From Escherichia coli (GTDB lineage: Bacteria > Pseudomonadota > Gammaproteobacteria > Enterobacterales > Enterobacteriaceae), in assembly GCF_002854065.1 (NCBI RefSeq), contig NZ_CP024154.1: 64,000 nucleotides of DNA; one strand, given 5' to 3'. Positions 1 to 54,814 of the stretch are shown here, one piece after another. Position numbers and translations under genes: made by a program. Position 1 is the stretch's first letter. Every line of letters begins with the position of its first letter. The notes beneath the pieces are model-generated. The model ran no database searches. It worked only from the letters and a program-made list of their open reading frames with translations, and was not told the DNA's origin.

Positions 1-66
1 TATGCGGTCGCCCGGTAACAGGTGCGGCACGGCCTGATGGAGGCCGCATGTGAGAGGAGAATTCCC

Positions 67-993
67 ATGCCAAACTGGTGCTCGAATCGTATGTATTTTT
101 CTGGTGAACCGGCACAGATCGCTGAGATTAAACGACTGGCCAGCGGTGCAGTTACACCGCTTTATCGCCGCGCCACAAATGAAGGTATTCAGCTGTTTCT
201 GGCCGGAAGTGCCGGACTTCTGCAGACCACTGAAGATGTGTGGTTTGAACCGTGCCCCGGACTGACGGCTGCCGGACGTGGCGTTGTATCGCCGGAGAAT
301 ATCGCGTTCACCCGCTGGCTGACACACCTGCAGAACGGTGTACTGCTGGATGAGCAAAACTGCCTGATGCTGCATGAACTCTGGCTGCAGAGCGGTACTG
401 GCCAGCGTCGCTGGGAAGGATTACCGGACGATGTCAGGGATACCATCACCGCGCTTTTCACCGCAAAAAGAGGTGACTGGTGTGGCTTCTGGAGTAACGA
501 GGATGTATCGGTGTGGTGGAACCGTCTGTGTGACAACGTACTGCCGGAAAAAACCATGCCGTTTGACCTGCTGACGGTTCTGCCCACCCGCCTTGATGTT
601 GAAGTGAATGGCTTTAACGGTGGTGTTCTGAACGGTGTTCCTTCTGCATATCACTGGTATACCGAACAGTATGGCGTGAAGTGGCCTTGTGGGTATGACC
701 TGAATATCAGCAGTCAGGGAGACAACTTCATTCAGGTTGATTTCGACACGCCGTGGTGTCAGCCGGAAAGCGACGTTATTGCAGAATTAAGCCGCCGTTT
801 CAGCTGCACGCTGGAGCACTGGTATGCCGAACAGGGCTGTGATTTCTGTGGCTGGCAGTTGTATGAGCGCGGAGAGCTCGTTGATGTGCTGTGGGGGGAG
901 CTGGAATGGTCTTCCCCGACAGATGACGATGAGCTGCCGGAAGTCACCGGACCTGCGTGGATAGTCGACAATGTGGCGCATTATGGCGGATGA
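67..993 (+). CDS. conserved leading-region protein of unknown function (about 308 aa; ORF open from window start, preferred start ATG 67)
   Basis: Long ORF with SD-like GAGAGGAGAA about 8 nt upstream of ATG 67; Trp/Cys-rich acidic protein; no catalytic motif recognised. Confidence 0.5.
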   Translation: MPNWCSNRMYFSGEPAQIAEIKRLASGAVTPLYRRATNEGIQLFLAGSAGLLQTTEDVWFEPCPGLTAAGRGVVSPENIAFTRWLTHLQNGVLLDEQNCLMLHELWLQSGTGQRRWEGLPDDVRDTITALFTAKRGDWCGFWSNEDVSVWWNRLCDNVLPEKTMPFDLLTVLPTRLDVEVNGFNGGVLNGVPSAYHWYTEQYGVKWPCGYDLNISSQGDNFIQVDFDTPWCQPESDVIAELSRRFSCTLEHWYAEQGCDFCGWQLYERGELVDVLWGELEWSSPTDDDELPEVTGPAWIVDNVAHYGG

Positions 994-1378
994 AGTATGA
1001 CGGAGACGGGCGGGCAACCGCCCGTTTCTTTTCCGGTAAAGGATGTCGCCGTGCTCCTCTTTATTACTGCGCCGGCTGACGCGGCGCGGCATAAACGCTG
1101 CCTGTGGTCAGTGTCCCGCGTCCGGCCGGGCACGGGACGGGCGCTTTTACCGCTCCCGGCTGGCGTCGGTGACAGTGTACGCCAGCCTGTCGCCCTTTTC
1201 TGATGAACGCCCTTCAAGCCGCTTTCGCGGCATAACCTTGCCGTCAAACAGACGACGGCTGCGGTATTCCACGGTCGGCCTGACCCGTTACCGGACGCGG
1301 TGAACAGCCCACAGGCAGCGGGGAACGGGCACCACAGGGGTGCCCTCCCGGTGCCCTCTGTAAGAGAAGGAGTTTTGT

Positions 1379-2062
1379 ATGTCCCGTTTTGTCCTCGGTA
1401 ACTGCATCGATGTTATGGCCCGTATCCCTGATAACGCCATTGATTTCATCCTCACCGACCCGCCGTACCTCGTCGGTTTCCGTGACCGTTCCGGGCGCAC
1501 CATCGCTGGCGATAAAACCGATGAATGGCTGCAACCGGCCTGTAATGAAATGTACCGCGTACTCAAAAAAGATGCGCTGATGGTCAGCTTCTATGGCTGG
1601 AACCGCGTCGATCGCTTTGTGGCCGCCTGGAAAAATGCGGGATTCAGCGTGGTTGGTCACCTGGTCTTCACCAAAAACTACACATCGAAGGCCGCATATG
1701 TGGGCTATCGCCACGAATGCGCCTACATCCTGGCAAAAGGCCGTCCACGTCTGCCACAAAACCCGCTGCCGGACGTGCTGGGCTGGAAATATTCGGGCAA
1801 TCGCCATCACCCGACGGAAAAGCCCGTTACCAGCCTGCAACCGCTGATTGAGAGCTTCACACACCCGAACGCAATTGTGCTGGACCCGTTTGCAGGCAGC
1901 GGCTCAACCTGCGTCGCCGCCCTCCAGTCCGGACGCCGGTATATCGGTATCGAGCTGCTTGAGCAGTATCACCGTGCCGGGCAGCAACGCCTTGCCGCCG
2001 TGCAACGGGCCATGCAGCAGGGGGCCGCGAATGATGACTGGTTTATGCCGGAGGCTGCGTAA
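1379..2062 (+). CDS. orphan DNA methyltransferase (N6-adenine/N4-cytosine type)
   Basis: DPPY motif (ILTDPPYLVGF) followed by FAGSGST AdoMet-binding motif; SD AGAAGGAG upstream; no adjacent restriction endonuclease. Confidence 0.8.
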   Translation: MSRFVLGNCIDVMARIPDNAIDFILTDPPYLVGFRDRSGRTIAGDKTDEWLQPACNEMYRVLKKDALMVSFYGWNRVDRFVAAWKNAGFSVVGHLVFTKNYTSKAAYVGYRHECAYILAKGRPRLPQNPLPDVLGWKYSGNRHHPTEKPVTSLQPLIESFTHPNAIVLDPFAGSGSTCVAALQSGRRYIGIELLEQYHRAGQQRLAAVQRAMQQGAANDDWFMPEAA

Positions 2063-2284
2063 ATGAACTATGCCGGACACGAAAAACTGCGCGCCGAAGT
2101 GGCGGAGGTGGCCAATGCCATGTGCGACCTGCGTACAACCATGAATGAGATGGAGCAGCGGTACAGCTTTAATGCCGACACCCTGCCGGAACGTCTGGTG
2201 CGTCAGACGCTGTTTCGCGCAAACCGCCTCCTGATGGAGGCATATACCGAAATTCTGGAACTGGATGCGTGCTTTAAAGATTGA
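2063..2284 (+). CDS. hypothetical small protein (73 aa), start abuts the methyltransferase stop
   Basis: ATG immediately after the TAA of the upstream gene (TAAATG); ORF only. Confidence 0.4.
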   Translation: MNYAGHEKLRAEVAEVANAMCDLRTTMNEMEQRYSFNADTLPERLVRQTLFRANRLLMEAYTEILELDACFKD

Positions 2285-2297
2285 GAAGGAGACGAGA

Positions 2298-2732
2298 ATG
2301 TACGGAACATGCGAAACGCTATGCCGGGAGCTGGCAGCAAAGTATCCGGGAGACACGCCGCTGATGCTGGTTATCTGGTCCCCGGAAGAAATTCAGGCCC
2401 TCGCTGACGGAATGGATATTTCCCTGTCCGATCATGAAATCAGGACTGTCCTGGCGCGCCTGGAGGACATCCCGGAAGACCAGCGGACTGAATCCGGTAT
2501 TTCTTCCGGTGCGGCGATGGAGATTATCAAATACGTGAGCGAAAACCGCCAGGTGACCGTCCCTGCTGAACTGCTGGCGTCCCTGATTCAGACCGCTGAA
2601 CAGGCACTGTGGAAACGTGAGTGGGCCGCCCGTGATAACGGCCTCGCCGTTCCGGAATGCGTCACCCGCCGACAGGCGGTGGTTAATCAGGCCCGCGCCC
2701 TGCTGAAAAACAACACACGCGAAAACGACTGA
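2298..2732 (+). CDS. hypothetical leading-region protein (145 aa), paralog of ORF 4435-4857
   Basis: SD GAGAAGGAGA upstream of ATG 2298; shares MY.T..E and R.VTVPA motifs with the 4435 product. Confidence 0.55.
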   Translation: MYGTCETLCRELAAKYPGDTPLMLVIWSPEEIQALADGMDISLSDHEIRTVLARLEDIPEDQRTESGISSGAAMEIIKYVSENRQVTVPAELLASLIQTAEQALWKREWAARDNGLAVPECVTRRQAVVNQARALLKNNTREND

Positions 2733-2776: not shown

Positions 2777-3547
2777 ATGAACGAAACGCTGAATGCACTG
2801 ATTTGTCGCCACGCCCGTAACCTGCTGCTGGCGCAGGGCTGGCCGGAAGAGACGGATGTTGACCAGCGAAATCCGAACTATCCGGGCTGGATCAGCATTT
2901 ACGTGCAGCTGGATGCGCCCCGGCTGGCGACGTTACTCGTTAACCGCCACGATGGCGTGCTGCCGCCGCACCTGGCCTCCGCCATTCAGAAACTGACCGG
3001 AACCGTGGCGGAACTTGTACTGTCCGGCAGCCAGTGGCAGGCGCTGCCGGTACTTCCGGCAGACGGAACGCAGGTGTCTTTCCCGTATGCCGGTGAATGG
3101 CTGACGGAGGAAGAAATCAGGGCCGTTCTTGATGCGGTGCACGATGCGGTACGCAGTGTCAGTTGCCGGGTGGCAGAAGATGCGCGGCGTATCAGGGCGG
3201 CGCTGACCACAACCGGTCAGACGTTGCTGACCCGCCAGACGCGCCGCTTTCGCCTGGTTGTGAAGGAAAGCGATTACCCCTGCTGGCTCGATGAAGACGA
3301 CGAAAACCTGCCCGTGGTGCTCGATGCCATCCTGAACCGGGGCGCTCGTTTTTCGTCGGTGGAAATGTATCTGGTCAGTGAGTGTGTGGAGCATATCCTG
3401 TCCAGTGGGCTGGCCTGCGATGTGCTGCGTATACCTGATGAACCGTCCCGTCGCTGGTTTGACCGGGATATTCTGCGGGAGGTGGTCCTGGAAGCCCGGA
3501 CTGAAATCCGCAGCATGGCGGATGCACTGGCGAAAATCCGGAAATGA
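2777..3547 (+). CDS. hypothetical leading-region protein (256 aa)
   Basis: Long ORF with SD AGGGAGA upstream; no recognised motif. Confidence 0.5.
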
Positions 3548-3619: not shown

Positions 3620-3945
3620 CTCCGCTTTACCCGGCCATGCGGGGCATGGCCTTGTGGGTTTTCAGTTATGTGGCCTCAGCGCCGTGTGCGGGCTGTGCCG
3701 TGCCTCCATCGTAGCCGGGCTTCTGCGGGCGGGTTGCAAGGTAAGGTGAACCGCTGCGGTCACCCGGTCCCTCCTTCCCGTCTGCCGTGATTTTCCGGTC
3801 GTTCACCCGCTCAGATTTCGCGGTCTCACCCTTCAACTCCCGTCAGCCGTGCGCGTCAGGCTGCGGCTTCCCTTGCGCCCTTGCAACCCTGCAGGCCCGG
3901 CAAAGATGGAGGCACGGCACCGCCCGGTGTCGCGGAATATGTGAA
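3620..3945 (+). repeat. repeat family A copy 1: about 330-bp hairpin-rich element, putative single-strand promoter (Frpo/ssi-like)
   Basis: About 95 percent identical to 10567-10892; contains perfect hairpin GGCCATGC-GGG-GCATGGCC; ends about 20 nt before the klcA start. Confidence 0.6.
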
Positions 3946-3962
3946 CAACGGAGGAAAACATC

Positions 3963-4388
3963 ATGCAATATGCGAAACCTGTCACTCTGAACGTTGAAGA
4001 GTGCGACCGTCTGTCTTTTCTGCCTTACCTGTTTGGCCTGGATTTTCTGTATGCCGAAGCGTCTGTATACGCGCTGGCGAAAAAAATGATGCCGGAATAT
4101 GAAGGCGGATTCTGGCACTTCATCCGCCTGCCGGACGGTGGCGGTTACATGATGCCGGATGGCGACCGTTTCCACATGGTGAACGGTGCAAACTGGTTTG
4201 ACCGTACCGTGAGTGCTGATGCCGCAGGCATCATCCTTACCTCCCTTGTGATTAACCGCCAGTTGTGGCTGTACCACGACAGCGGGGATGCAGGGTTGAC
4301 ACACCTGTACAGGATGCGTGATGCGCAGTTGTGGAGCCACATCGAATTTCACCCCGAATGCAACGCGATTTACGCGGCACTTGACTGA
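3963..4388 (+). CDS. klcA: anti-restriction protein, KlcA/ArdB family
   Basis: 141-aa protein with KlcA/ArdB-like sequence and size; SD GGAGGA upstream; leading-region context. Confidence 0.75.
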
Positions 4389-4434: not shown

Positions 4435-4857
4435 ATGTACTGTACTGTTAAAGAAATCATCCGCGATGTACTGGATACAGACGTGCCGGACAGTGAATGC
4501 GTTTTTGCCGTGGTGCTGACCCGTGGGGATGTGCGTCACATAGCCCGGGACTGGAACCTGTCAGACGATGAGCTGGAAACCGTCATGCAGCGGCTGGACG
4601 ATGCTTTTGTATATGGCGCATGTGACAGAGTTGTTTCCGATATTGTCAATGAACTGATGGAAGAAAAGCGCGCCAGCCGTCATGTGACAGTCCCGGCGGT
4701 GATGCTGGAAAAAGTGATGGCGCTGGCAGGTAGTGAAATGAAGCGCCTGTATGCCGTCGGGAGTGAGAACGGGGGCGACGGTGACGCATTCGTCAGGGAG
4801 GAACTCGAAGCAATGGACGTTGTGTTGCAGGCGCTGGACGGGGAGACGATGTCATGA
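4435..4857 (+). CDS. hypothetical leading-region protein (140 aa), paralog of ORF 2298-2732
   Basis: SD AAAGGAGA upstream; shared MY.T..E, LSD.E..TV..RL.D and R.VTVPA motifs with the 2298 product. Confidence 0.5.
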   Translation: MYCTVKEIIRDVLDTDVPDSECVFAVVLTRGDVRHIARDWNLSDDELETVMQRLDDAFVYGACDRVVSDIVNELMEEKRASRHVTVPAVMLEKVMALAGSEMKRLYAVGSENGGDGDAFVREELEAMDVVLQALDGETMS

Positions 4858-5045: not shown

Positions 5046-5248
5046 TACAGGGGCAGGCGGTGGAGGCCGCCTGTCAGCCCGCGCGAAAACCCCTGGCAGG
5101 CTGACGCCTGCCGGAAACGAGGGGGGCAGCGCCTGCGGCGCTGCCGGCCCGGCTTTCCGGTCAGAAGGTAGTGTATGGCTGTATGCAGGGAACAGGAGTG
5201 ATATTCCGTGACACTGTCACCGTTTCTGGCTGTCTTTTATTGCGCCCA

Positions 5249-5745
5249 CTTCGGCTCCCGGCTGCCTGGCGGCATCCGGTCGTCAGGCCCGACTCCGACG
5301 GGCAGCTGCTGGCGCACCCGCCAGTCTCCGCCGAACCCGCTGGCGCGGTTTCGGGCTGCCGCTACGGTCCGATGCGTGAAAACCCGGCTTGCAGCGACCG
5401 TTCCGGTCGCGCCGCCCCTGTCGCGCCGTGACCTGCGCTCCCTGCACACCTGACGGTGTGTGAGGAAACTGCGCCTGATGGCGCAGCAGTCCTCCCTCCT
5501 GCCGCCACTCCTGCGGCCTGTTTCCCGCTGTGGACTTTCCGGGGGGCAGACGTAACCCCCTCCCGTTCCATCTGTCCAGGGTGAGATGCACCGGCCACAA
5601 AATTTTTAGCCATGAACCCGGCAAAAAATTTTGCGTCCGCCCCCGGACAGCTGCCCCGTGAGGCGGTAAACGGGCCCCCATCGGAAAGGTCCACTGCGGG
5701 GAGAAACCCCTGTGAAGTGGACGGCAGGAGGAGCTTTCGCTCCTC
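5249..5745 (+). repeat. repeat family B copy 1: about 500-bp hairpin-rich element, putative single-strand promoter/ssi
   Basis: Near-identical to 11592-12090 and partially to 14681-15010; multiple perfect hairpins (GCGACCG-TTC-CGGTCGC, ACACC-TGAC-GGTGT); ends about 70 nt before ssb. Confidence 0.6.
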
Positions 5746-5814: not shown

Positions 5815-6342
5815 ATGAGTGCACGTGGTATCAACAAGGTCATCCTCGTCGGGCGTCTGGGCAATGATCCGGAAGTCCGTTACATCCCCAACGGGGGCGC
5901 AGTGGCAAACCTGCAGGTGGCTACGTCAGAAAGCTGGCGCGACAAACAGACGGGGGAAATGAAGGAACAGACGGAATGGCACCGCGTGGTGCTGTTCGGC
6001 AAGCTCGCGGAAGTGGCTGGCGAATATCTGCGCAAGGGCGCGCAGGTCTACATCGAGGGGCAACTCCGTACCCGTAGCTGGGAAGATAACGGTATCACCC
6101 GTTACGTCACTGAAATTCTTGTTAAGACCACGGGCACCATGCAGATGCTGGGGAGTGCACCACAGCAGAACGCTCAGGCGCAACCGAAGCCTCAGCAGAA
6201 TGGGCAGCCACAGAGTGCTGACGCGACGAAAAAAGGTGGCGCGAAAACGAAAGGCCGTGGACGTAAGGCCGCGCAGCCCGAGCCTCAGCCGCAAACGCCG
6301 GAGGGGGAGGATTACGGGTTTTCAGACGACATCCCGTTCTGA
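5815..6342 (+). CDS. ssb: plasmid single-stranded DNA-binding protein
   Basis: OB-fold SSB N-terminus ([18 protein letters not shown]), Gly/Gln/Pro-rich linker and acidic C-terminal DDIPF tail; SD AGGAGG. Confidence 0.92.
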
Positions 6343-6691: not shown

Positions 6692-8650
6692 ATGCCTGTA
6701 ACGAAGTGTGAACCAGAAACCACCCGCAAAGCAAGCCGTAAATCTGCAAAAACGCAGGAAACTGTCCTGTCTGCCCTGCTGGCGCAGACGGAGGAAGTGA
6801 GCGTGCCGCTGGCCTCGCTGATTAAATCACCGCTGAATGTGCGCACGGTGCCGTATTCTGCGGAGTCCGTCAGCGAACTGGCTGAGTCCATTAAGGGCGT
6901 TGGCCTGTTGCAGAATCTGGTCGTGCATACTCTGCCTGGTGACCGTTACGGTGTCGCCGCAGGTGGTCGCCGACTGGCTGCACTCAACATGCTGGCAGAG
7001 CGTGGCATCATTCCGGCTGACTGGCCTGTCCGTGTGAAGGTCATTCCGCAGGAGCTGGCGACGGCGGCATCAATGACTGAAAACGGTCATCGTCGGGATA
7101 TGCACCCTGCTGAACAGATTGCCGGATTCCGCGCAATGGCGCAGGAAGGCAAAACACCTGCACAAATCGGTGATTTGCTGGGCTATTCACCCCGCCACGT
7201 TCAGCGAATGCTGAAACTGGCTGACCTTGCGCCTGTCATCCTCGATGCGCTGGCAGAAGACCGCATCACCACCGAACACTGTCAGGCGCTGGCGCTGGAG
7301 AACGACACCGCGCGTCAGGTGCAGGTGTTTGAAGCTGCCTGTCAGTCGGGATGGGGCGGAAAACCGGATGTGCGGGTTATCCGCAATCTGATTACGGAAA
7401 GTGAAGTGGCGGTGGCGGGGAACAGTAAATTCCGCTTCGTGGGGGCTGATGCCTTCTCGCCAGACGAACTGCGCACCGATTTGTTCAGCGACGACGAGGG
7501 TGGCTATGTGGACTGCGTGGCGCTCGATGCCGCCCTGCTGGAAAAACTCCAGGCTGTCGCAGAGTTCCTTCGGGAAGCCGAAGGCTGGGGATGGTGCGCC
7601 GGACGCATGGAGCCTGTCGGTGAGTGCCGTGAGGATGCCGGAACATACCGCAACCTGCCGGAGCCGGAAGCGGTGCTGACCGAGGCGGAAGAAGAACGTC
7701 TGAACGAACTGATGACGCGTTACGACGCGCTGGAAAACCAGTGTGAGGAATCTGACCTGCTGGAAGCAGAAATGAAGCTGATGCGCTGCATGGCGAAGGT
7801 CAGAGCGTGGACGCCGGAGATGCGTGCCGGAGGTGGCGTGGTGGTGTCCTGGCGTTATGGCAATGTGTGTGTCCAGCGTGGTGTGCAGTTGCGCAGTGAG
7901 GATGATGCGGCTGACGACGCTGACCGCACGGAACAGGTGCAGGAAAAAGCATCAGTGGAGGAAATCAGTCTGCCACTGCTGACGAAAATGTCTTCCGAAC
8001 GCACGCTGGCAGTCCAGGCAGCACTGATGCAGCAACCGGACAAATCCCTGACACTGCTGGCATGGACGCTCTGCCTGAATGTGTTTGGCAGCGGAGCGTA
8101 CAGTAAACCAGCACAAATCAGCCTGGAATGTAAACATTATTCGCTGACCAGCGATGCGCCATCGGGGAAGGAAGGTACCGCATTCATGGCGCTGATGGCA
8201 GAAAAAGCCCGTCTTGCTGCCCTGTTACCGGAGGGATGGTCACGGGACATGACGACATTCCTGTCACTCAGTCAGGAGGTGCTGTTATCCCTGCTGAGTT
8301 TCTGCACCGCATGCAGCCTTAACGGTGTCCAGACCCGTGAGTGTGGTCACACGTCACGCAGTCCGCTTGACACGCTGGAAACCGCTATCGGATTCCACAT
8401 GCGCGACTGGTGGCAGCCGACAAAAGCAAACTTCTTCGGACACCTGAAAAAGCCGCAGATTATCGCAGCTCTGAATGAGGCAGGACTGTCCGGTGCCGCA
8501 CGGGATGCGGAGAAGATGAAGAAAGGCGATGCGGCTGAACATGCAGAGTTCCACATGAAAGACAACTGCTGGGTGCCTGGCTGGATGTGTGCACCACGTC
8601 CACAGACGGATACCACTGAACGCACCGATAACCTGGCTGATGCCGCCTGA
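6692..8650 (+). CDS. ParB-like nuclease-domain protein (about 653 aa)
   Basis: N-terminal ParB/Srx-like region (LIKSPLNVR, GLLQNLVV, AGGRRLAAL, HRRDMHPAEQ); long acidic C-terminal extension; between ssb and psiB. Confidence 0.7.
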   Translation: MPVTKCEPETTRKASRKSAKTQETVLSALLAQTEEVSVPLASLIKSPLNVRTVPYSAESVSELAESIKGVGLLQNLVVHTLPGDRYGVAAGGRRLAALNMLAERGIIPADWPVRVKVIPQELATAASMTENGHRRDMHPAEQIAGFRAMAQEGKTPAQIGDLLGYSPRHVQRMLKLADLAPVILDALAEDRITTEHCQALALENDTARQVQVFEAACQSGWGGKPDVRVIRNLITESEVAVAGNSKFRFVGADAFSPDELRTDLFSDDEGGYVDCVALDAALLEKLQAVAEFLREAEGWGWCAGRMEPVGECREDAGTYRNLPEPEAVLTEAEEERLNELMTRYDALENQCEESDLLEAEMKLMRCMAKVRAWTPEMRAGGGVVVSWRYGNVCVQRGVQLRSEDDAADDADRTEQVQEKASVEEISLPLLTKMSSERTLAVQAALMQQPDKSLTLLAWTLCLNVFGSGAYSKPAQISLECKHYSLTSDAPSGKEGTAFMALMAEKARLAALLPEGWSRDMTTFLSLSQEVLLSLLSFCTACSLNGVQTRECGHTSRSPLDTLETAIGFHMRDWWQPTKANFFGHLKKPQIIAALNEAGLSGAARDAEKMKKGDAAEHAEFHMKDNCWVPGWMCAPRPQTDTTERTDNLADAA

Positions 8651-8704
8651 TGAACAACCACACCGCCCCGCCGGAGACGGGGCGGCAGCAAGGGAGATAC
8701 CGTG

Positions 8705-9139
8705 ATGAAAACTGAACTGACCCTGAATGTATTACAGACCATGAGTGCACAGGAATATGAAGATATCCGGGCTGCCGGAAGTGATGAACGCCGTGAGCTG
8801 ACACACGCCGTGATGCGGGAACTGGATGCGCCGGACAACTGGACGATGAATGGCGAGTACGGCAGCGAGTTCGGCGGCTTTTTCCCCGTCCAGGTCCGTT
8901 TCACGCCTGCCCACGAACGTTTTCACCTGGCGTTATGTTCACCGGGCGATGTCTCTCAGGTCTGGGTGCTGGTTCTGGTGAATGCCGGTGGTGAGCCGTT
9001 TGCGGTGGTTCAGGTGCAGCGGCGGTTTGCACCGGAAGCTGTCAGCCATTCACTGGCACTGGCGGCGTCACTGGATGCGCAGGGGTACAGCGTTAACGAC
9101 ATCATTCATATCCTGATGGCGGAAGGAGGTCAGGCATGA
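8705..9139 (+). CDS. psiB: plasmid SOS inhibition protein B
   Basis: 144-aa product; position immediately upstream of and overlapping psiA; SD AGGGAGA. Confidence 0.85.
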
Positions 9140-9855
9140 GCGCACGTTCACGGGCACTGATCCCCCTCAGCGCAGAACAACAGGCCGCCATGCAGGCGGT
9201 GGCTGTCACAGAACAACGTCGTCGTCAGGGACGCACACTTTCAGCATGGCCTTATGCCACCGCTTTCTTTCGCTGCCTGAATGGCAGTCGCCGGATTTCG
9301 CTGACCGATCTCCGCTTTTTTGCCCCTGCGCTGACGAAGGAGGAATTTCATGGCAACCGTCTCCTGTGGCTGGCTGCCGTGGATAAACTGATTGAAAGTT
9401 TTGGGGAAGTCTGTGTTCTTCCCCTGCCATCCGATGCGGGGCACCGTCTGTTCCCGTCCCTGCCTTTTCGTGAAGGTGAGCGTCGTCGTCAGAAAACCAC
9501 GCTGACAGAGCAGAAATACAGCCGCCAGCGGGAACGTGAGGCAGAACGACGGGAACTGGAATACCAGACATGTTTTGCTCAGGCGCAGATTGACCTTGCG
9601 TTTCATACTCCCGCCACGGTCGGAAGCTGGTTGTCCCGCTGGTCTGGTGTTGTTGAGGAGCATGATCTGGAAACGATTTTCTGGGGGTGGTGCGGGCGTT
9701 TTCCATCACTGTCATCATTTGACCGGTTTTTCTGGCAGGAGGAACCACTCTGGCGGCTGATTTTTGAAGCCGGTGAGGCCGGTCGTGGTGCACCGGTACA
9801 GGTACGTGCACTTGAGCAGTGGATGATCCCGAACAAGCTGGAGAACGTAATATGA
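9136..9855 (+). CDS. psiA: plasmid SOS inhibition protein A
   Basis: 239-aa product, start overlaps psiB stop (ATGA); typical psiB-psiA pair. Confidence 0.85.
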
Positions 9856-10566: not shown

Positions 10567-10892
10567 CTCCGCTTTTACCCGGCCATGCGGGGCATGGCCT
10601 TGTGGGTTTTCAGTTATGTGGCCGCCGTGTCGTGTGCGGGCTGTGCCGTGCCTCCATCGTAGCCGGGCTTCTGCGGGCGGGATGCAAGGTAAGATGAACC
10701 GCTGCGGTCACCCGGTCCCTCCTTCCCGTCTGCCGTGATTTTCCGGTCGTTCACCCGCTCAGATTTCGCGGTCTCACCCTCCAACTCCCGTCAGCCGTGC
10801 GCGTCGGGCTGCGGCTTTCCTTGCGCCCTTGCATCCCTGCAGGCCCGGCAAAGATGGAGGCACGGCACCGCCCGGTGTCGCAGAACATGTGA
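10567..10892 (+). repeat. repeat family A copy 2, putative single-strand promoter
   Basis: About 95 percent identical to 3620-3945; ends immediately upstream of the ardA SD. Confidence 0.6.
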
Positions 10893-11410: not shown

Positions 11411-11591
11411 TTTACTCCCCCGCTCCGGCGGGGGTATGGCCTGCCAGGCCGCCGGAAAACCCTGGCAGGCTTACGCCTGCCTGAAATGCAGGAGGGCCGC
11501 GCCTGCGGCGCTGCCCTTCCTGCCCGTCATGGTGTGAGGCATTTTTCTGTTATGTCGTTTCTGTTGTTCTGATTTCCGGAGGCGGGGACAC

Positions 11592-12090
11592 CTTCGGCTC
11601 CCGGCTGCCTGGCGGCATCCGGTCGTCAGGCCCGACTCCGACAGGCAGCTGCTGGCGCACCCGCCAGTCTCCGCCGAACCCGCTGGCGCGGTTTCGGGCT
11701 GCCGCTACGGTCCGATGTCTGAAAAACCAGGCTTGCAGCGACCGTTCCGGTCGCGCCGCCCCTGTCGCGCCGGAAACGGCGCTCCCTGCACACCTGACGG
11801 TGTGTAAGGCCACTGCGCCTGATGGCGCAGTTGTCTGCCCTTCCGCCGCCCCCCCTGCGGCCTGTTTCCCCGCTGTGGACTTTCCGGGGGCTGAAGCGGC
11901 CACAACACGTTTCAGCCGTCCAGGGGAGAGATGTACCAGCCACAAAACTTTTTGCCGCAGGCGTCAAAAACTTTTGCGTCTGCCCCCGGACAACTGCCCC
12001 GTGCCGTGGCAGTCGCTGCCCTATCGGAAAGGTCCACTGCGGGGAGAAACCCCGAAGAAGTGGACGGCAGAAGGGGCTTTCGCCCCTCCG
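11592..12090 (+). repeat. repeat family B copy 2, putative single-strand promoter
   Basis: Near-identical to 5249-5745; ends about 50 nt before ORF 12143. Confidence 0.6.
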
Positions 12091-16439: not shown

Positions 16440-16545
16440 GGCTATAATTGACCGAAAAACGGGACAGGATGTGGGAATGTCGGACCGCGCACGCGCACTC
16501 AGACATTCCCCACCTGGTCAGGGCTTTGCCCCGACACCCCGGTAA
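16440..16545. other. oriT: origin of transfer (oriT) with inverted repeats, immediately upstream of nikA
   Basis: GGGAATGTC...GACATTCCC inverted repeat flanking a GC-rich core, plus GGTCAGGGCTTTGCCCCGAC; position and orientation relative to nikA-nikB and the leading region. Confidence 0.65.
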
Positions 16546-16555
16546 GGAGCAGACC

Positions 16556-16888
16556 ATGAGTGAGAAGAAAACCCGAACGGGCAGTGAGAACAGGAAGAGA
16601 ATTGTAAAATTCACGGCGAGATTCACGGAGGATGAGGCTGAAATCGTAAGAGAAAAAGCGGAGTCAAGTGGACAGACGGTTTCAACATTTATACGAAGCT
16701 CTTCACTGGATAAGGTGGTTAACTGCCGTACTGACGACCGTATGATTGATGAGATTATGCGTCTTGGCCGCCTTCAGAAGCATCTGTTTGTGGAGGGAAA
16801 ACGCACTGGTGATAAGGAGTATGCAGAGGTTCTTGTTGCCATTACTGAATATGTCAATGCTCTGCGAAGAGACTTAATGGGACGCTGA
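16556..16888 (+). CDS. nikA: relaxosome accessory protein NikA (ribbon-helix-helix)
   Basis: 110-aa product immediately upstream of the relaxase; SD AAGGAG. Confidence 0.85.
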   Translation: MSEKKTRTGSENRKRIVKFTARFTEDEAEIVREKAESSGQTVSTFIRSSSLDKVVNCRTDDRMIDEIMRLGRLQKHLFVEGKRTGDKEYAEVLVAITEYVNALRRDLMGR

Positions 16889-16899
16889 GATAACTGCTG

Positions 16900-19611
16900 A
16901 TGAATGCCATTATTCCGCACAAAAGACGTGACGGCAGGTCTTCCTTTGAAGACCTGATTGCGTACACGTCTGTGCGGGATGATGTGCAGGAAAATGAGCT
17001 CACAGAAGACAGCGAAATCAAGAGTGATGTCCCTCACCGCAACCGTTTCAGACGGCTTGTTGATTATGCAACACGCCTGCGTAACGAAAAATTTGTCTCC
17101 CTGATTGATGTGATGAAAGACGGCAGTCAGTGGGTAAATTTCTATGGCGTAACCTGTTTCCATAACTGCAATTCACTGGAAACAGCTGCTGAAGAGATGC
17201 AGTACAAGGCGGACAAAGCTGTTTTTTCCCGTAATGATACAGACCCCGTTTTCCACTACATTCTTTCCTGGCCTGCGCATGAAAGCCCGCGTCCTGAGCA
17301 GCTTTTTGACTGTGTGCGTCACACACTGAAATCTCTTGAACTCTCAAAACATCAGTACGTGGCTGCCGTTCATACGGACACGGATAATCTGCATGTGCAT
17401 GTTGCCGTGAATCGTGTACATCCTGAAACTGGTTATATTAACTGGCTTTCCTGGAGCCAGGAAAAACTCAGCCGTGCATGTCGTGAACTTGAACTTAAGC
17501 ACGGATTCGCGCCTGATAATGGCTGCTTTGTGCATGCACCCGGCAACCGTATTGTGCGCAAAACAGCGCTGGTACGTGAGCGCCGTAATGCCTGGCGACG
17601 CGGGAAAAAGCAGACGTTCAGGGAATATATTGCGCAGATGTCGATTGCCGGGCTGCGTGAAGAGCCCGCACAAGACTGGTTGTCTTTGCATAAACGGCTG
17701 GCCAGTGATGGTCTGTATATCACGATGCAGGAAGGGGAACTGGTGGTGAAGGATGGCTGGGACAGAGCGCGGGAAGGTGTTGCACTCAGTTCGTTCGGAC
17801 CGTCATGGACAGCTGAAAAACTGGGGCGGAAACTGGGGGAATATCAGCCTGTACCGACAGATATTTTCAGTCAGGTGGGGACACCCGGTCGTTATGATCC
17901 GGAAGCCATAAACGTTGATATCCGGCCGGAAAAAGTGGCAGAAACGGAGAGTCTGAAACAGTACGCCTGCCGTTATTTTGCCGAACGCTTACCGGAAATG
18001 GCGAGAAATGGTGAGCTGGAAAGTTGCCTGGATGTGCACAGAACTCTGGCAAAGGCTGGATTATGGATGGGGATCCAGCACGGGCATCTGGTACTGCATG
18101 ATGGATTTGATAAACAACAGACACCAGTACGTGCAGACAGTGTGTGGCCGTTAATGACGCTGGATTATATGCAGGATCTGGATGGTGGATGGCAGCCTGT
18201 ACCGAAGGATATTTTTACTCAGGTTATACCCGGAGAACGATTCCGGGGACGTAATCTTGGTACTCAGGCTGTCAGTGATTACGAATGGTATCGTATGCGG
18301 ATGGGGACAGGTCCACAGGGAGCAATAAAGCGCGAACTGTTTTCTGATAAGGAAAGTCTGTGGGGGTACACGACTGTTCAGTGTGAGTCGTTGATTGAAG
18401 ATATGATCGCGGGCGGGAATTTCAGCTGGCAGGCGTGCCATGAGATGTTTGCGCGTAAAGGGCTTATGTTGCAGAAACAGCATCATGGTCTTGTGATTGT
18501 GGATGCGTTTAATCATGAGCTCACACCAGTGAAGGCCAGCAGTATCCACCCGGATTTGACGTTATCCAGGGCTGAGCTGCAGGCAGGGCCATTTGAGATT
18601 GCAGGTGCAGATATATTTGAACGGGTGAAGCCTGAATGTCGCTACAATCCGGAACTTGCTGCCAGCGATGAAGTGGAACCCGGCTTCCGGCGCGATCCTG
18701 TACTGCGTCGTGAACGCCGTGAAGCCCGTGCAGCTGCGCGGGAAGATTTGCGCGCGCGTTATCTTGCATGGAAGGAGCACTGGCGTAAACCCGACTTACG
18801 TTACGGAGAACGGTTACGGGAAATTCATGCTGCCTGCCGTCGGCGCAAGGCGTATATCCGTGTGCAGTTCCGGGATCCACAATTGCGTAAGCTGCATTAC
18901 CATATTGCGGAAGTGCAGCGTATGCAGGCGCTGATCAGGCTGAAGGAGAGTGTGAAGGAAGAGCGGTTGTCACTGATTGCGGAGGGTAAGTGGTATCCTT
19001 TGTCCTACCGGCAGTGGGTGGAGCAACAGGCGGTACAGGGAGACAGAGCTGCATTATCACAGTTACGTGGCTGGGATTATCGTGATCGTCGCAAAGACAA
19101 GCGACGAACAACGAATGCCGACCGCTGCGTGATTCTCTGTGAACCGGGAGGAACTCCACTTTATGAAGACACTGGCGTTCTCGAAGCCCGTCTGCAGAAA
19201 GATGGCAGTGTGCGTTTTCGTGATCGGAGGAATGGCGAGTTAGTCTGTGTGGATTATGGGGACCGTGTGGTGTTCTACCATCATCAGGACAGAAATGAAC
19301 TGGTGGATAAGCTGAATCTGATTGCTCCTGTATTGTTTGATCGTGAGCCAGGAATGGGTTTTGAACCGGAAGGCTCATATCAACAGTTTAATGATGTATT
19401 TGCGGAAATGGTGGCCTGGCATAATGCAGCTGGAATAACCGGAAATGGACACTTTGTAATCAGCCGCCCGGATGTGGATTTACATCGTCAGCGTAGTGAA
19501 CAGTACTACCACGAATATATCAGGCAACAGAAAAGCATATCCGGGGGGCATGGCGCATCTTATGCTCCAGTTCAGGATAATGAGTGGACGCCACCATCAC
19601 CTGGAATGTAG
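16900..19611 (+). CDS. nikB: conjugative relaxase NikB (MobP family)
   Basis: 903 aa; histidine-triad motif HTDTDNLHVHVAVNRV in the N-terminal relaxase domain; follows nikA; terminator hairpin at about 19631-19664. Confidence 0.9.
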   Translation: MNAIIPHKRRDGRSSFEDLIAYTSVRDDVQENELTEDSEIKSDVPHRNRFRRLVDYATRLRNEKFVSLIDVMKDGSQWVNFYGVTCFHNCNSLETAAEEMQYKADKAVFSRNDTDPVFHYILSWPAHESPRPEQLFDCVRHTLKSLELSKHQYVAAVHTDTDNLHVHVAVNRVHPETGYINWLSWSQEKLSRACRELELKHGFAPDNGCFVHAPGNRIVRKTALVRERRNAWRRGKKQTFREYIAQMSIAGLREEPAQDWLSLHKRLASDGLYITMQEGELVVKDGWDRAREGVALSSFGPSWTAEKLGRKLGEYQPVPTDIFSQVGTPGRYDPEAINVDIRPEKVAETESLKQYACRYFAERLPEMARNGELESCLDVHRTLAKAGLWMGIQHGHLVLHDGFDKQQTPVRADSVWPLMTLDYMQDLDGGWQPVPKDIFTQVIPGERFRGRNLGTQAVSDYEWYRMRMGTGPQGAIKRELFSDKESLWGYTTVQCESLIEDMIAGGNFSWQACHEMFARKGLMLQKQHHGLVIVDAFNHELTPVKASSIHPDLTLSRAELQAGPFEIAGADIFERVKPECRYNPELAASDEVEPGFRRDPVLRRERREARAAAREDLRARYLAWKEHWRKPDLRYGERLREIHAACRRRKAYIRVQFRDPQLRKLHYHIAEVQRMQALIRLKESVKEERLSLIAEGKWYPLSYRQWVEQQAVQGDRAALSQLRGWDYRDRRKDKRRTTNADRCVILCEPGGTPLYEDTGVLEARLQKDGSVRFRDRRNGELVCVDYGDRVVFYHHQDRNELVDKLNLIAPVLFDREPGMGFEPEGSYQQFNDVFAEMVAWHNAAGITGNGHFVISRPDVDLHRQRSEQYYHEYIRQQKSISGGHGASYAPVQDNEWTPPSPGM

Positions 19612-25810: not shown

Positions 25811-26083
25811 GCGATCCCAGGGAGAGTGGGTGGCTCTGGCCCGGAGGAAGTCTCTTTTCAACTAACGTTACCAGAATATCGTTATATTCACCTGATCGCA
25901 ATCTGTTCGTTACAGTCTATTGTTCCGGGAGTAGCGATATCGCCTGAAACAAGTATAATCAGCAAGTTAGCCTTGTCTGGAGACTTACCTTCGCATCAAT
26001 CCATTTGCCGTATTTTCGTAAAATTCAACAGGAAATATTCAACGGGAGTGAGAGAACTGCTGTCCGGGGAGGAGGTACAGACG

Positions 26084-26117
26084 CAAAAAAACCGACTGGT
26101 GAGGCCGGTTTTTTTGC
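26084..26117. terminator. bidirectional terminator-like hairpin (copy 2)
   Basis: AAAAAAACCG-ACTGGTGAG-GCCGGTTTTTTT, nearly identical to copy 1. Confidence 0.5.
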
Positions 26118-26431
26118 GATTCCGGATCGAAGTTGGTAGCCCTGACCGGAAGATAACTGCCTATAACTGACTATGAAATAATACGGCTGAAATAATATTT
26201 CTGCAAGCACAGTATAAGTATATACTCGGTGTGTCAGCTTTGAGGCACGTTCTTTCCGGCATATCGTTCACCGGGATGAACAGGTTGCAAGTCCTGGCCA
26301 AAACATCAGGTGGTGCTGGTTTTGGTGCTCTGGCCGGAGAAGAACTGTCTATAACTGACACTATAGAAAACGTGGCGACAGGCAATGTAAGGGCAAACCA
26401 CGGTGTTCTTTCTCCATTGATGGAGAAGCGG

Positions 26432-29483: not shown

Positions 29484-29664
29484 GATGTGTCCTTGTTTTT
29501 TATTATTTTGCATTTCAGAAAATAACACGATGCCTGCAGCCCGGAAAACAGATGTGTGCACACGTAGTCACTTTCCGGCTTTATTTCTGTCCCTGACACA
29601 AAATACGTGGTGGCATGAAAAGGATTGTGGCGGACAGGAAAACGATTAGAATAGCGGCGGGCGC

Positions 29665-29958
29665 TTGAGGCTGTATGCCGAAAGCGTTTTGTGGACGGCA
29701 TGTAGCAGAAAGCCCCAGGCGATTTTTTTATCAATCAACCCAGGGCCCACTGTAATGCCTCAACAACATTATAGTAGCCCGATGACGGCCGAAAGGCAAT
29801 GGAGGGGCTGCGATGCCACAACGAACGTTTTTAATGATGTTAATCGTCGTCTGTGTGACGATACTGTGTTTTGTCTGGATGGTGAGGGATTCGCTTTGCG
29901 GATTTCGTATCGAGCAGGGAAATACGGTGCTTGTGGCAACGTTAGCCTACGAAGTTAA
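29665..29958 (+). CDS. pndC: pndC (mok-like) overlapping leader reading frame of the pnd locus
   Basis: Reading frame that overlaps and ends inside pndA in a different frame, as in hok/mok loci. Confidence 0.5.
   Translation: MRLYAESVLWTACSRKPQAIFLSINPGPTVMPQQHYSSPMTAERQWRGCDATTNVFNDVNRRLCDDTVFCLDGEGFALRISYRAGKYGACGNVSLRS
29690..29780 (-). ncRNA. pndB: expected position of PndB (Sok-like) antisense RNA; not delimited from sequence
   Basis: Placed by analogy to hok/sok architecture only. Confidence 0.25.
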
Positions 29959-52394: not shown

Positions 52395-53539
52395 TTGGGG
52401 AATTCTCCGGCCGGGATGAAGAGCGCAGCTTCTGATGCCTCAATGCTGCCCGTCTGATACATGGTCAGAACCTGATCCCGTATCCGCCGTTTTTCCTTGC
52501 GAATGATTTCATCAATGTAATGCCCCCATGTCGCATGGGACTGCCGGGAGAGCGTATCACGCAGTTCGTCAGTTATGACGATGTATTCCCGGACGGCCTG
52601 TCTGCCACCGTCATTTGTTCTGACCAGGACCTGCACCAGAATGAACTGCACCAGGGAAAGGGTGGCGGCTGCCATTGAATCCCTGATTTCCGGTGGAAAT
52701 AACCCCAGCAGCCGGGCAAAGGTTTCACCGGGTGATTTGGTGTGCATGGTGCCGATGCAGAAGTGACCGGTGTTACCTGCCTGGACGGCTGCATCTGCCG
52801 TTTCATAATCCCTGATTTCACCGATACCGATGATGTCCGGGTTACGGCGAACGGCAGAGCGAAGTCCTGCCGCAAAACTTTCCACATCACGCCCGATTTC
52901 GGCCTGATGGGGTGGCAGAAGGTCATTCTCTCCCCCCAGAATGTATTCCACCGGATCTTCATAGGTCACCGTTTTGCGGTCGGGGAAATGCGTCTGAATG
53001 TAGCGGTACAGTGCCGCTGCCAGTGTGGATTTACCGGAGCCGGTCTCTCCGCAGATGAAACCCAGACCGGTTTTCCGGAGCATGGCATCCAGCAGGTCCG
53101 GTTCAATATTCATGGTGAGGATGTCCGGAATATCGGACGGGATCACCCGCATGGTGACGGAGATTACTTTTTCTTCTGTTGCTGATGTTCCCTGAATCAG
53201 ATGACAGCGCAGGCGAACACGCTGCCCCCGTTGCAGACCGTAGCGACCGGAGGCATCACCGCTGACCTGAATGGTACGGTCCACGGGATGACCGGACAGC
53301 ACCCGGGGAAGGACTTCCCGTCCAAACAATTCATCACTCAGCGCCATCATGATGGAGGACGGCAGAGGATGTGCGGACGAACGTACCCGCCGTCCAAAGC
53401 GACTGACAGATACCGGTGAGCCGCCTGTCAGATCGATATCACTGACGCGGTGTCGGGCACACCAGGCAAAAAAATAGCGAAACTCTTCGGCCGTGAAACG
53501 GGCGAAAGGGAATGTGCCGAACTCATCGGGTAATTTCAT
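52391..53539 (-). CDS. traJ: TraJ conjugation ATPase (DotB/PilT/VirB11-like)
   Basis: Walker A GETGSGKST; 382 aa. Confidence 0.85.
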   Translation of the reverse strand: MKLPDEFGTFPFARFTAEEFRYFFAWCARHRVSDIDLTGGSPVSVSRFGRRVRSSAHPLPSSIMMALSDELFGREVLPRVLSGHPVDRTIQVSGDASGRYGLQRGQRVRLRCHLIQGTSATEEKVISVTMRVIPSDIPDILTMNIEPDLLDAMLRKTGLGFICGETGSGKSTLAAALYRYIQTHFPDRKTVTYEDPVEYILGGENDLLPPHQAEIGRDVESFAAGLRSAVRRNPDIIGIGEIRDYETADAAVQAGNTGHFCIGTMHTKSPGETFARLLGLFPPEIRDSMAAATLSLVQFILVQVLVRTNDGGRQAVREYIVITDELRDTLSRQSHATWGHYIDEIIRKEKRRIRDQVLTMYQTGSIEASEAALFIPAGEFPK

Positions 53540-54359
53540 CGGGGGCTCCTTCCGTGCTGACGACCGGACGCCAGCGTGATTTCTGCAGGGTGAATTCCGC
53601 GTGTGTCTTCAGACGGCGGACGTGGTCTCCGGTGATGAGTTTCCTGCCGTTACCGGTGACGGTCTGCCGCTGTTCAGTCACATCCGGGCGTGTGATCATG
53701 CCCTGACGCCAGAGCAGGGCATAAAGCATCATTCCCCGGTAATCCCGGGTCAGGCGTTTCTGGTTGGCTTCCAGGGTGAGGTCAGCGTTGTCACGGCCTT
53801 CCTGCCAGCCCTGGCGGAGTGCGTTTTCCCAGAGTCTGCGCTGTGCGCGGTCTTCCGGTACAACACGGCCCTCAGTTCCCGGGGTGGCGGTAGTGGAAAG
53901 CCCCCGCAGAAGCCAGTCACGCCAGCCCGGCGGGTTACTGACAAAACGTTCGGGGCGCAGGATGGTCCAGACACGGGACGCGGTTCTTATCTGGTCAGGC
54001 TGAATGTGAGCAACATCCTGCGCTTCATCAATAACAGGGGGTAGCCAGCCTTCCCTGCTGATAAGGGGACGGAAGTCATACAGGGCATTCAGTGTACTTT
54101 CCCGGGCATTCAGTGCCTGAATCAGTTCCCATGAGCGCTGTGCTTTTCCGCCACGGAATCCCAGCGTTCGTCCGGCGTCCGTGAGCATCTGGCGACGGGT
54201 GTCTGAAATGCCGTCATCCTGGTTGTCAGTGGGCGTCAGCCATGCCCGGAGATCCGGCGGTGGTAAATTGCCTGCCATACCGGCAGGGGGGCGATGGTGC
54301 TGTCCGGCACAGCCTGCCAGCAGGAGCCCGGACAGCAGGAGACAGACCTGTTTTTTCAT
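53523..54359 (-). CDS. TraI-like lipoprotein (DotC-like)
   Basis: Lipobox LLLAGCAG; 278 aa. Confidence 0.6.
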   Translation of the reverse strand: MKKQVCLLLSGLLLAGCAGQHHRPPAGMAGNLPPPDLRAWLTPTDNQDDGISDTRRQMLTDAGRTLGFRGGKAQRSWELIQALNARESTLNALYDFRPLISREGWLPPVIDEAQDVAHIQPDQIRTASRVWTILRPERFVSNPPGWRDWLLRGLSTTATPGTEGRVVPEDRAQRRLWENALRQGWQEGRDNADLTLEANQKRLTRDYRGMMLYALLWRQGMITRPDVTEQRQTVTGNGRKLITGDHVRRLKTHAEFTLQKSRWRPVVSTEGAPDEITR

Positions 54360-54814
54360 TTTTTCTCCGTTGGCATATAGGAAAGATGTAAACGCCCGGC
54401 TGACTGTGAGAGGACTGCCCGCCAGGCAGTCTGGGCCTCTGTGAGACGAAGGGCATCAGCGAAGGTCATATCGCGTACATGGAGTGAGACGGGCAGGGGA
54501 AGACGCACGCCGCTGTAACTGAACTGTTGTCCGCGCAGACGGGCCAGCTCGCTCAGGAGCTCCAGAGCATCGCCTTCCCAGTCAAAGGAAACCCGCCCGC
54601 TGTGAGCCTGCAGGCTGCCTCCGGGCTGGCGGGAAGGCAGGGCTGCAGAATACGTGCCCTGCTCCCACAACTGATACTGTGCATGTCGTGTGACAGCGAC
54701 TTCAGAAGCTGCACCGTACTTCCTGGCCGGTGCGGTATTATCCGGGGGAAGATGACAGCCGCTCAGACAGAGCATGGCAACTCCCCCTGCAAGGGTGATA
54801 CGTTTTTTTTGCAT
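54356..54814 (-). CDS. TraH-like lipoprotein
   Basis: Lipobox LCLSGCHL; 152 aa. Confidence 0.55.
   Translation of the reverse strand: MQKKRITLAGGVAMLCLSGCHLPPDNTAPARKYGAASEVAVTRHAQYQLWEQGTYSAALPSRQPGGSLQAHSGRVSFDWEGDALELLSELARLRGQQFSYSGVRLPLPVSLHVRDMTFADALRLTEAQTAWRAVLSQSAGRLHLSYMPTEKK

Follow-up and report, generated by a model that had tools for sequence, protein, structure and literature searches.

The gene examined here belongs to a family whose closest described members are Api92 of the Yersinia pseudotuberculosis adhesion pathogenicity island, for which a crystal structure is available (2IJR), YubB/YfdA of plasmid F, and a set of short proteins with a "YubB ferredoxin-like domain" found in phages, giant viruses and polinton-like viruses. 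To our knowledge, no function has been demonstrated for any member of this DUF1281/Api92/YubB family. Among the protein families enriched in the leading regions of plasmids, it is family 27, listed as "Uncharacterized; DUF1281" under the names YubB, YccB and YfdA, with a median position 22 open reading frames (ORFs) from the origin of transfer (oriT) and on strand 1, which is compatible with the T-strand (Samuel et al., 2024). The gene lies at positions 67-993 on the + strand of a 64,000-nucleotide stretch of Escherichia coli DNA (contig NZ_CP024154.1 of assembly GCF_002854065.1), referred to here as the window. The best explanation overall, to which we give a probability of roughly 0.35, is that it encodes an early-expressed accessory factor for establishment or anti-defence that would act through a conserved pocket.

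The 67-993 ORF is a real gene and not a chance reading frame. It starts at an ATG at 67, ends with a stop codon at 993 and encodes a product of 308 amino acids (34.9 kDa) with an isoelectric point (pI) of 4.34, 44 Asp and Glu (14%) against 19 Lys and Arg, and a good ribosome-binding site, which confirms the acidic 308-residue protein described in the first-pass annotation. The exact protein is already present in NCBI (OKB82343.1, on 85 contigs), more than 5000 plasmid records carry the gene at 90-99% DNA identity, and clusters of the intact 308-residue protein have thousands of members apiece. Among five alleles, including that of plasmid F after repair of its frameshift, the ratio of nonsynonymous to synonymous substitution (dN/dS) is 0.12-0.31. 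The product is an intact, soluble, acidic protein under purifying selection, an I-complex/F-type allele of DUF1281.

Public records disagree on the start codon, placing it at GTG 22 (323 amino acids, a longer ORF in which the ATG-67 frame is nested), at ATG 67 (308 amino acids) or at Met9 (300 amino acids; window 91-993). The motif MPNWCxN is kept, beginning at residue 1, by full-length relatives with as little as 24% identity, by the protein of the crystal structure and by the short phage homologues, while codons 6 and 7 differ from those of an IncI-gamma plasmid only synonymously (TCG/AGT and AAT/AAC). Because of these two observations, the comparison of sequences identifies ATG 67 as the true start, and the GTG-22 and Met9 starts of some RefSeq records are unsupported. 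The 300-residue RefSeq models truncate the conserved N-terminal motif, and the GTG choice extends past it.

The suggestion of the first-pass annotation that the protein might belong to a conserved plasmid DUF family was borne out by a hidden Markov model search against Pfam. DUF1281 (PF06924) matches residues 30-206 over its entire profile (1-177 of 177) with 168.1 bits against a gathering cut-off of 27.3 (E 1.9e-49), and DUF1281_C (PF18406), a ferredoxin-like domain, matches residues 209-282 with 57.1 bits against a cut-off of 22.8 (E 1.7e-15). Sequence homology to 2IJR is likewise strong (E 1.3e-50), and the predicted fold agrees with that solved structure. Membership in the DUF1281/Api92/YubB family is supported alike by the Pfam matches, the fold and the motifs and is virtually certain. 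Homology supplies the family and a solved fold without a function, so that the absence of a functional assignment noted in the first-pass annotation still stands; a search of the 308-residue protein against NCBIfam gave no match, none of the PADLOC-DB models matched at E values up to 1, and a literature search on the family names returned only incidental mentions or unrelated genes and author names. ArdA, Ocr and Antirestrict were not matched either.

The ferredoxin-like alpha/beta core of the protein consists of the N-terminal strand-helix unit and residues from about 205 to 280, with a helical domain of about 180 residues inserted between them. Among 1.84 billion representative proteins, 701 relatives were found at E below 1e-3 and 92 below 1e-30. 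Full-length members are nearly all from Enterobacterales, together with Photobacterium and Shewanella, whereas the short homologues from phages and metagenomes (150-220 amino acids) lack the helical insert and carry the same invariant motifs, including the N-terminal one. Fold matches include giant-virus proteins, and the short phage homologues sit in early or accessory gene arrays; the corresponding PHROGs (20518, 12644 and 2715) are annotated "unknown function". DUF1281 is the long form of a superfamily whose short members occur in phages, giant viruses and conjugative elements. Api92 differs from the window protein in lacking C261 and the C-terminal HYGG, and in residing on an integrative element instead of a plasmid.

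Conservation was assessed in 31 full-length and 31 short homologues. The motifs MPNWCxN, GxKW, DTxW and ExG are all present in the window protein; DTxW (residues 227-230) and ExG (255-257) lie in DUF1281_C and its flanks, and GxKW (residues 203-206, nucleotides 673-684) just N-terminal to the Pfam span of that domain. At the N-terminus, N3 is conserved in 84%, W4 in 81%, C5 in 90% and N7 in 100%. The residues invariant in both long and short forms are N3, W4, C5, N7, G203, K205, W206, T228, W230, E255, G257 and G262. In the structural model these residues are found where strands 1 (residues 4-12) and 5 (260-267) begin, where strands 3 (221-229) and 4 (248-255) end, and immediately before strand 2 (210-217). 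Because these positions fall on the same edge of the antiparallel sheet, the model suggests that they line one polar, Trp-lined pocket beside the N-terminus, the clustering being read from the strand topology of the model and not from atomic coordinates.

The first-pass annotation also described the protein as rich in Trp and Cys. The counts agree with this (17 Trp, 5.5%; 10 Cys, 3.2%), and they are largely particular to this lineage: relatives carry 5-13 Trp, about 8 on average, and many of the extra Trp residues here stand in for Tyr or Phe. Among the cysteines, C5 is conserved in 90%, C261 in 81% and C247 in 68%; the remainder are lineage-specific, and C5 is the one cysteine kept throughout the superfamily. 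The family as a whole is acidic (pI 4.1-5.1 in 29 of 31 relatives; net charge -11 to -33), while the excess of Trp is specific to this lineage. Three catalytic or processing motifs were considered and rejected. A tautomerase-like catalytic N-terminal Pro does not fit, as Pro2 is present in 20 of 31 relatives and absent in Api92; an N-terminal Cys nucleophile of the SRAP or N-terminal nucleophile (Ntn) type does not fit a Cys at position 5 with no sign of processing; and a ubiquitin-like C-terminal Gly-Gly does not fit a tail that is confidently packed in the model and missing from the Api92 branch.

The gene is the oriT-distal first member of a co-directional leading-region array, about 15.5 kb from nikA and oriT, in keeping with the earlier description of a leading-region protein at the distal end of the island and directly upstream of an orphan methyltransferase (Table 1). 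The first 25 kb of the window is closest to IncK2/Z and other I-complex plasmids, at 97% identity. From ssb onward, the + strand carries a ParB-like gene, psiB, psiA, ardA, an Rpn nuclease gene, a DUF4942 gene and then nikA. In related complete plasmids, the next genes upstream are a divergent, LexA-controlled impC-impA-impB operon and then parA. Homologues at 35-45% identity hold the same position, beside parA/parM-stbB or umuDC and at the head of an array of ArdA, methylase, ArdB, ParB-like, PsiB and PsiA genes.

Class 2 and class 3 single-stranded DNA (ssDNA) promoters have been described in the IncI1 plasmid pESBL (PMC12672017), and homologues of both precede DUF1281 genes in other lineages. 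In an Edwardsiella plasmid (CP100847; L010 6786-7000), a class-3 homologue lies directly upstream of DUF1281, with 77% identity over 221 nt (E 2e-41); it retains the same long-range stem, and the DUF1281 protein behind it is 43% identical. Since this element stands before M.EcoGIX elsewhere, the order of genes relative to promoters varies by lineage. A narrow class-2 profile, built from only the two class-2 elements of the window (3626-3925 and 10574-10873), matches directly upstream of DUF1281 in a metagenomic plasmid (L002; nhmmer E 2.9e-10). A broader class-2 profile, trained with the exclusion of all sequences tested with it, matches at the same place in two further plasmids, one from Yersinia (E 1.8e-9 and 2.2e-8) and one from Buttiauxella (E 2.3e-5). 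The Yersinia plasmid (L007) has three class-2-type hairpins within 2.3 kb (6161-6331, 6801-6997 and 8133-8388), which precede a 78-residue ORF, DUF1281 and ardA. As far as the sequences go, DUF1281 genes generally follow hairpins of the ssDNA-promoter type.

In the window, only the gene-proximal arm of the upstream hairpin is present. Window positions 1-66 are 98.5% identical to positions 9001-9066 of the IncI-gamma plasmid (L001), in which 8790-9066 (-) folds with a z-score of -5.0 and the entire intergenic region with one of -7.6. Across the IncI/pESBL/IncK2/Z/F lineage to which the window belongs, the broader class-2 profile gives weak collinear matches (distal arm, E 0.0035; proximal arm, E 0.19), and one more iteration of the profile gives E 0.0013. 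An RNAalifold consensus of six template-strand sequences is a 32-pair hairpin with 82.6% of cells paired, against 28-46% in slid controls, and 15 of its pairs show compensatory changes; none of 500 shuffles matched the observed values, the structure having been derived from the same alignment that was used for counting. The IncI sequence, which represents this lineage, makes 23 of the 32 pairs, and its hairpin may have the stem architecture of class 2. When diverged copies of the upstream region were sought by a distant DNA search, nearly all those returned were over 95% identical, which left too few for an analysis of covariation in this lineage. The element may be a diverged class-2-type ssDNA promoter candidate. 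A scan of the + strand upstream of the gene for sigma-70 promoters found none.

On the downstream side, a GC-rich hairpin at 1002-1033 folds as RNA with a free energy of -23.7 kcal/mol (z -3.7) and is conserved in F and IncI plasmids; a simple terminator pattern scan left it unflagged. Beyond it, the remainder of the 994-1378 spacer forms a long template-strand hairpin (z -7.25) that corresponds to the "class 3" ssDNA promoter of M.EcoGIX in pESBL (PMC12672017). Because the terminator-like hairpin and the class-3 promoter lie between the two genes, DUF1281 would form its own transcription unit, apart from the methylase operon. RefSeq annotates a "hypothetical protein" of 101-102 amino acids at window 997-1303 (+) in F, IncI and IncK plasmids; this ORF lies wholly within the class-3 promoter and terminator-like hairpins and is probably no gene.

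Evidence on phenotype comes from the I-complex plasmid pMS7163B, whose gene "010" (c(568..1494), 927 nt), adjoining impC, is the DUF1281 homologue (PMC10286972, S1 Table A). In transposon-directed insertion-site sequencing (TraDIS), this gene had a log counts-per-million (logCPM) value of 13.8 and a log2 fold change (log2FC) of +0.27 after versus before conjugation, where a log2FC of -2 or lower was the threshold for requirement (PMC10286972). Neither plasmid maintenance nor surface conjugation between laboratory E. coli strains requires the homologue. In plasmid F (NC_002483, L006 8856-9781), the loss of 1 nt from an A-run, at the equivalent of window position 548, splits the gene, and the allele also carries the non-conservative substitutions W59R and W206G. 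Split alleles form clusters of hundreds, the F-type split yielding a 145-residue C-terminal ORF named "YfdA", and PLSDB annotates no gene at 8856-9781 of F. Relaxed selection on the F allele was considered and is not supported, dN/dS being 0.23-0.25 once the frameshift is repaired. Selection maintains the gene even though losses occur, a pattern typical of accessory genes that are useful only under certain conditions.

The reading of the gene as an establishment or anti-defence factor is preferred because a conserved site, a position at the head of an anti-restriction array and promoter-type hairpins upstream occur together. The protein would be made in the new host soon after the plasmid enters, and early expression is plausible from the class-2 and class-3 homologues that precede the gene in four other lineages. 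Its pocket would bind or chemically modify a small, widely shared ligand, for example a nucleotide-type molecule, and its action would be unlike that of a DNA mimic or an inhibitor of one host-specific protein. Since plasmid and giant-virus proteins alike keep this site, catalysis or the binding of a universal small ligand fits better than inhibition of one host-specific protein. The factor would be conditionally useful and dispensable in matings of laboratory E. coli K-12, and the TraDIS value of its homologue is counted as support for such conditional dispensability. A role in the recipient after entry has close to an even chance of being correct, and the pocket-ligand mechanism is put forward only tentatively, as something that would more probably fail than hold.

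The phage anti-defence proteins Tad1, Tad2, Acb2 and Acb1 are small and soluble, and each neutralises a widely shared small molecule within a pocket lined by aromatic residues. These sponges and degraders of nucleotide signals serve as a working model by analogy, and no homology or fold match between them and DUF1281 was detected. A more ambitious proposal joins two ideas: the superfamily would be a mobile-element-wide enzyme or ligand sponge, whose Trp-lined pocket (N-W-C-x-N, G-T-K-W, T-x-W, E-x-G) neutralises some universal small molecule, for instance a cofactor or a nucleotide signal of immunity, and DUF1281 would be a seventh, previously unreported zygotically induced unit with its own diverged class-2 ssDNA promoter. 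The first part would extend to plasmids, integrative elements, phages, giant viruses and polinton-like viruses, and the second to I-complex/F-type plasmids. Taken together, the two are improbable.

Several observations weigh against the establishment or anti-defence reading. Plain local alignment of the upstream region with class 1, 2 and 3 elements was not significant (z 0.3-1.1); the class-2 likeness of the upstream hairpin emerged only when profiles and structures were compared, and it is marginal in this lineage (E 0.0013-0.0035). The text of the RNA sequencing report on pESBL transconjugants gives only six induced operons, which begin distally at M.EcoGIX and among which the DUF1281 gene is not named (PMC12672017). 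As pESBL carries an intact copy, locus O3K_RS25890 at 53471-54397 of NC_018659, this would imply that its DUF1281 gene is not among the strongly induced genes. The pMS7163B homologue was neutral in TraDIS, the gene is frameshifted in F, and split alleles are common in E. coli. The single pocket was placed by strand order and residue alternation.

The protein could instead be a stoichiometric inhibitor or decoy whose acidic surface and helical domain bind a nuclease, a restriction enzyme or a recombination/repair factor of the host in the manner of ArdA, Ocr, KlcA and PsiB, with no catalysis and no small ligand. The gene stands amid ArdA, KlcA/ArdB, PsiB and an orphan methylase, shares their strand and the acidity of such proteins, and has a conserved negative charge; the large helical insert, found only in the long form of enterobacteria, could serve to bind a target in a host-specific way, and dispensability in K-12 matings is expected where the target, or the matching defence of the recipient, is absent. 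Nevertheless, ArdA, KlcA/ArdB and Ocr have no sequence or fold relation to DUF1281: the Pfam ArdA and Antirestrict (PF03230) models do not match the protein, although PF03230 does match the neighbour at 3963-4388, there is no structural match to DNA mimics, and an Asp and Glu content of 14% is far under that typical of such mimics. A DNA mimic as such was rejected for its lack of homology and only moderate acidity. The polar and aromatic set that is invariant in phage and giant-virus homologues is also hard to square with one host-specific target, and the decoy explanation is unlikely. Still less probable is a backbone gene expressed vegetatively from double-stranded DNA, which would have its divergent control region in common with the LexA-regulated impCAB operon and serve SOS/mutagenesis control or plasmid maintenance. 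Consistent with it, the gene is divergent from impC-impA-impB in pESBL, the IncK2/Z relative and the Edwardsiella plasmid, with a consensus LexA box between them; it lies upstream of the most distal validated ssDNA promoter with a terminator-like hairpin between, and the text of the pESBL report names only the six induced operons. It sits poorly with the tolerance of transposon insertions and the lack of a maintenance or conjugation phenotype in pMS7163B, with the negative sigma-70 scan, with the early or accessory arrays that hold the short phage homologues, and with the Yersinia, Buttiauxella and L002 plasmids, where the neighbours are not umuDC and ssDNA-promoter-type hairpins still precede the gene.

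The frameshifted F copy with its two Trp substitutions, the many split alleles in E. coli and the neutral TraDIS result could also mark a decaying or functionless passenger in this plasmid lineage. This is very improbable given the dN/dS values, which hold for the repaired F allele as well, an intact window copy identical to the sequence on 85 contigs, intact clusters far more numerous than fragments, and the retention of position and motifs down to 24-30% identity. An iron-sulfur ferredoxin or other redox protein is suggested by the domain name and the Cys count only, and one paper on polinton-like viruses took DUF1281_C in this way. It is hardly credible, because the family does not conserve its cysteines (the Api92 branch lacks C261 and C247) and "ferredoxin-like" names a beta-alpha-beta fold only; a cluster motif of the CxxCxxC/CxxC type is absent, and matches to thioredoxin and hydrogenase reach only E 0.13-0.9.

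Table 1. Positions of the DUF1281 gene, its parts and the surrounding features in the window.
Feature	Position	Strand	Remarks
Gene-proximal arm of long template-strand hairpin	1-66	-	Remainder lies beyond the window start, ~190 nt in related plasmids
Shine-Dalgarno/ribosome-binding site	52-60	+	GAGAGGAGA; 6-7 nt 5' of ATG 67; read from sequence
DUF1281/YubB/Api92-family coding sequence	67-993	+	308 aa + stop
N-terminal strand-helix unit	67-156	+	aa 1-30; AF2: E4-12, H15-26; MPNWCxN; first strand of the core
Helical insert domain, Pfam DUF1281	154-684	+	aa 30-206; Pfam; model helices H32-202
C-terminal ferredoxin-like domain, Pfam DUF1281_C	691-912	+	aa 209-282; Pfam, AF2 model, conservation
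Acidic linker (TDDDELPE) and C-terminal motif G-P-x-[YW]-I-x-x-N-x-x-H-Y-G-G	913-990	+	Packed on the body in the model, predicted local distance difference test (pLDDT) ~90
Intrinsic-terminator-like hairpin	1002-1033	+	GGAGACGGGCGG-GCAA-CCGCCCGUUUCU then UUUCC; directly past the stop codon
Class 3 ssDNA promoter hairpin of M.EcoGIX-like methylase operon	1040-1378	-	Bounds the gene, outside it
M.EcoGIX-type orphan methylase	1379-2062	+	PF01555; NCBIfam PRK13699, E 1e-150
73-aa ORF	2063-2284	+	Directly 3' of the methylase; gene "950" of pMS7163B
DUF1380-type gene	2265-2732	+	In methylase operon; one of two paralogues
256-aa protein of unknown function	2777-3547	+	
KlcA/ArdB	3963-4388	+	PF03230 (Antirestrict), 2.4e-26
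Second DUF1380-like gene	4435-4857	+	After klcA; gene "910" of pMS7163B
ssb	5815-6342	+	
nikA	16448-16888	+	
Relaxase	16900-19611	+	

Further observations concern the surroundings of the gene. In the IncI-gamma plasmid (L001), positions 8640-8720 hold a truncated impC (DinI-like) together with the consensus LexA box TACTGTATATATATACAGCA, on the strand opposite to DUF1281 and some 350 nt upstream of it; pESBL and the IncK2/Z relative have the complete impCAB operon at this place. The DUF1281 gene of the window has 44 nt differences from that of the IncK2/Z relative (L014 6067-6993) and 11 from that of the IncI-gamma plasmid (L001 9067-9993). Thus, the gene is nearer to IncI-gamma although its flanks are IncK2/Z-like, which suggests that recombination has made this end of the leading region a mosaic. 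The two DUF1380-type paralogues of the window match their family at E 1.5e-53 (2265-2732) and 0.0047 (4435-4857). In pMS7163B, insertion of a resistance cassette into gene "950" abolished conjugation by a polar effect, the over-expression of the two genes downstream, whose homologues in the window are 2265-2732 and 2777-3547, and gene "910" has a donor-specific conjugation phenotype. Two pairs of direct repeats are found in the array: 3626-3925 and 10574-10873, which are 97% identical and lie upstream of klcA/ardB and ardA as class-2 ssDNA promoters, and 5084-5526 and 11453-11870, which are 81-97% identical, of the class-1/Frpo-ssi type, and lie upstream of ssb and a gene near 11.8 kb. Rfam searches of the window also identified a sok antitoxin RNA at 29659-29815 (+; 124.7 bits) and an AgrB antisense RNA at 26083-26170 (-; 47.7 bits, just over the gathering score).

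Earlier publications already cover the gene and its family, including the fold and the enrichment in leading regions, and the sequence itself is ordinary and catalogued. What is added here is the correction of the start codon, a shared motif set that links DUF1281 to the short viral YubB-domain proteins, and the placement of DUF1281 genes of several lineages directly behind homologues of class-2 and class-3 ssDNA promoters. Leading regions decide whether a resistance plasmid survives its first minutes within a new host, and about one-third of the commonest gene families in plasmid leading regions are without known function. DUF1281 is among the largest of these, occurring in thousands of IncI, IncK/B/O/Z and IncF resistance plasmids, and is unusual among them in having a solved structure together with relatives in phages and giant viruses. 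If the protein is indeed an anti-defence factor with a conserved ligand pocket, it would represent a new counter-defence mechanism common to plasmids and viruses.

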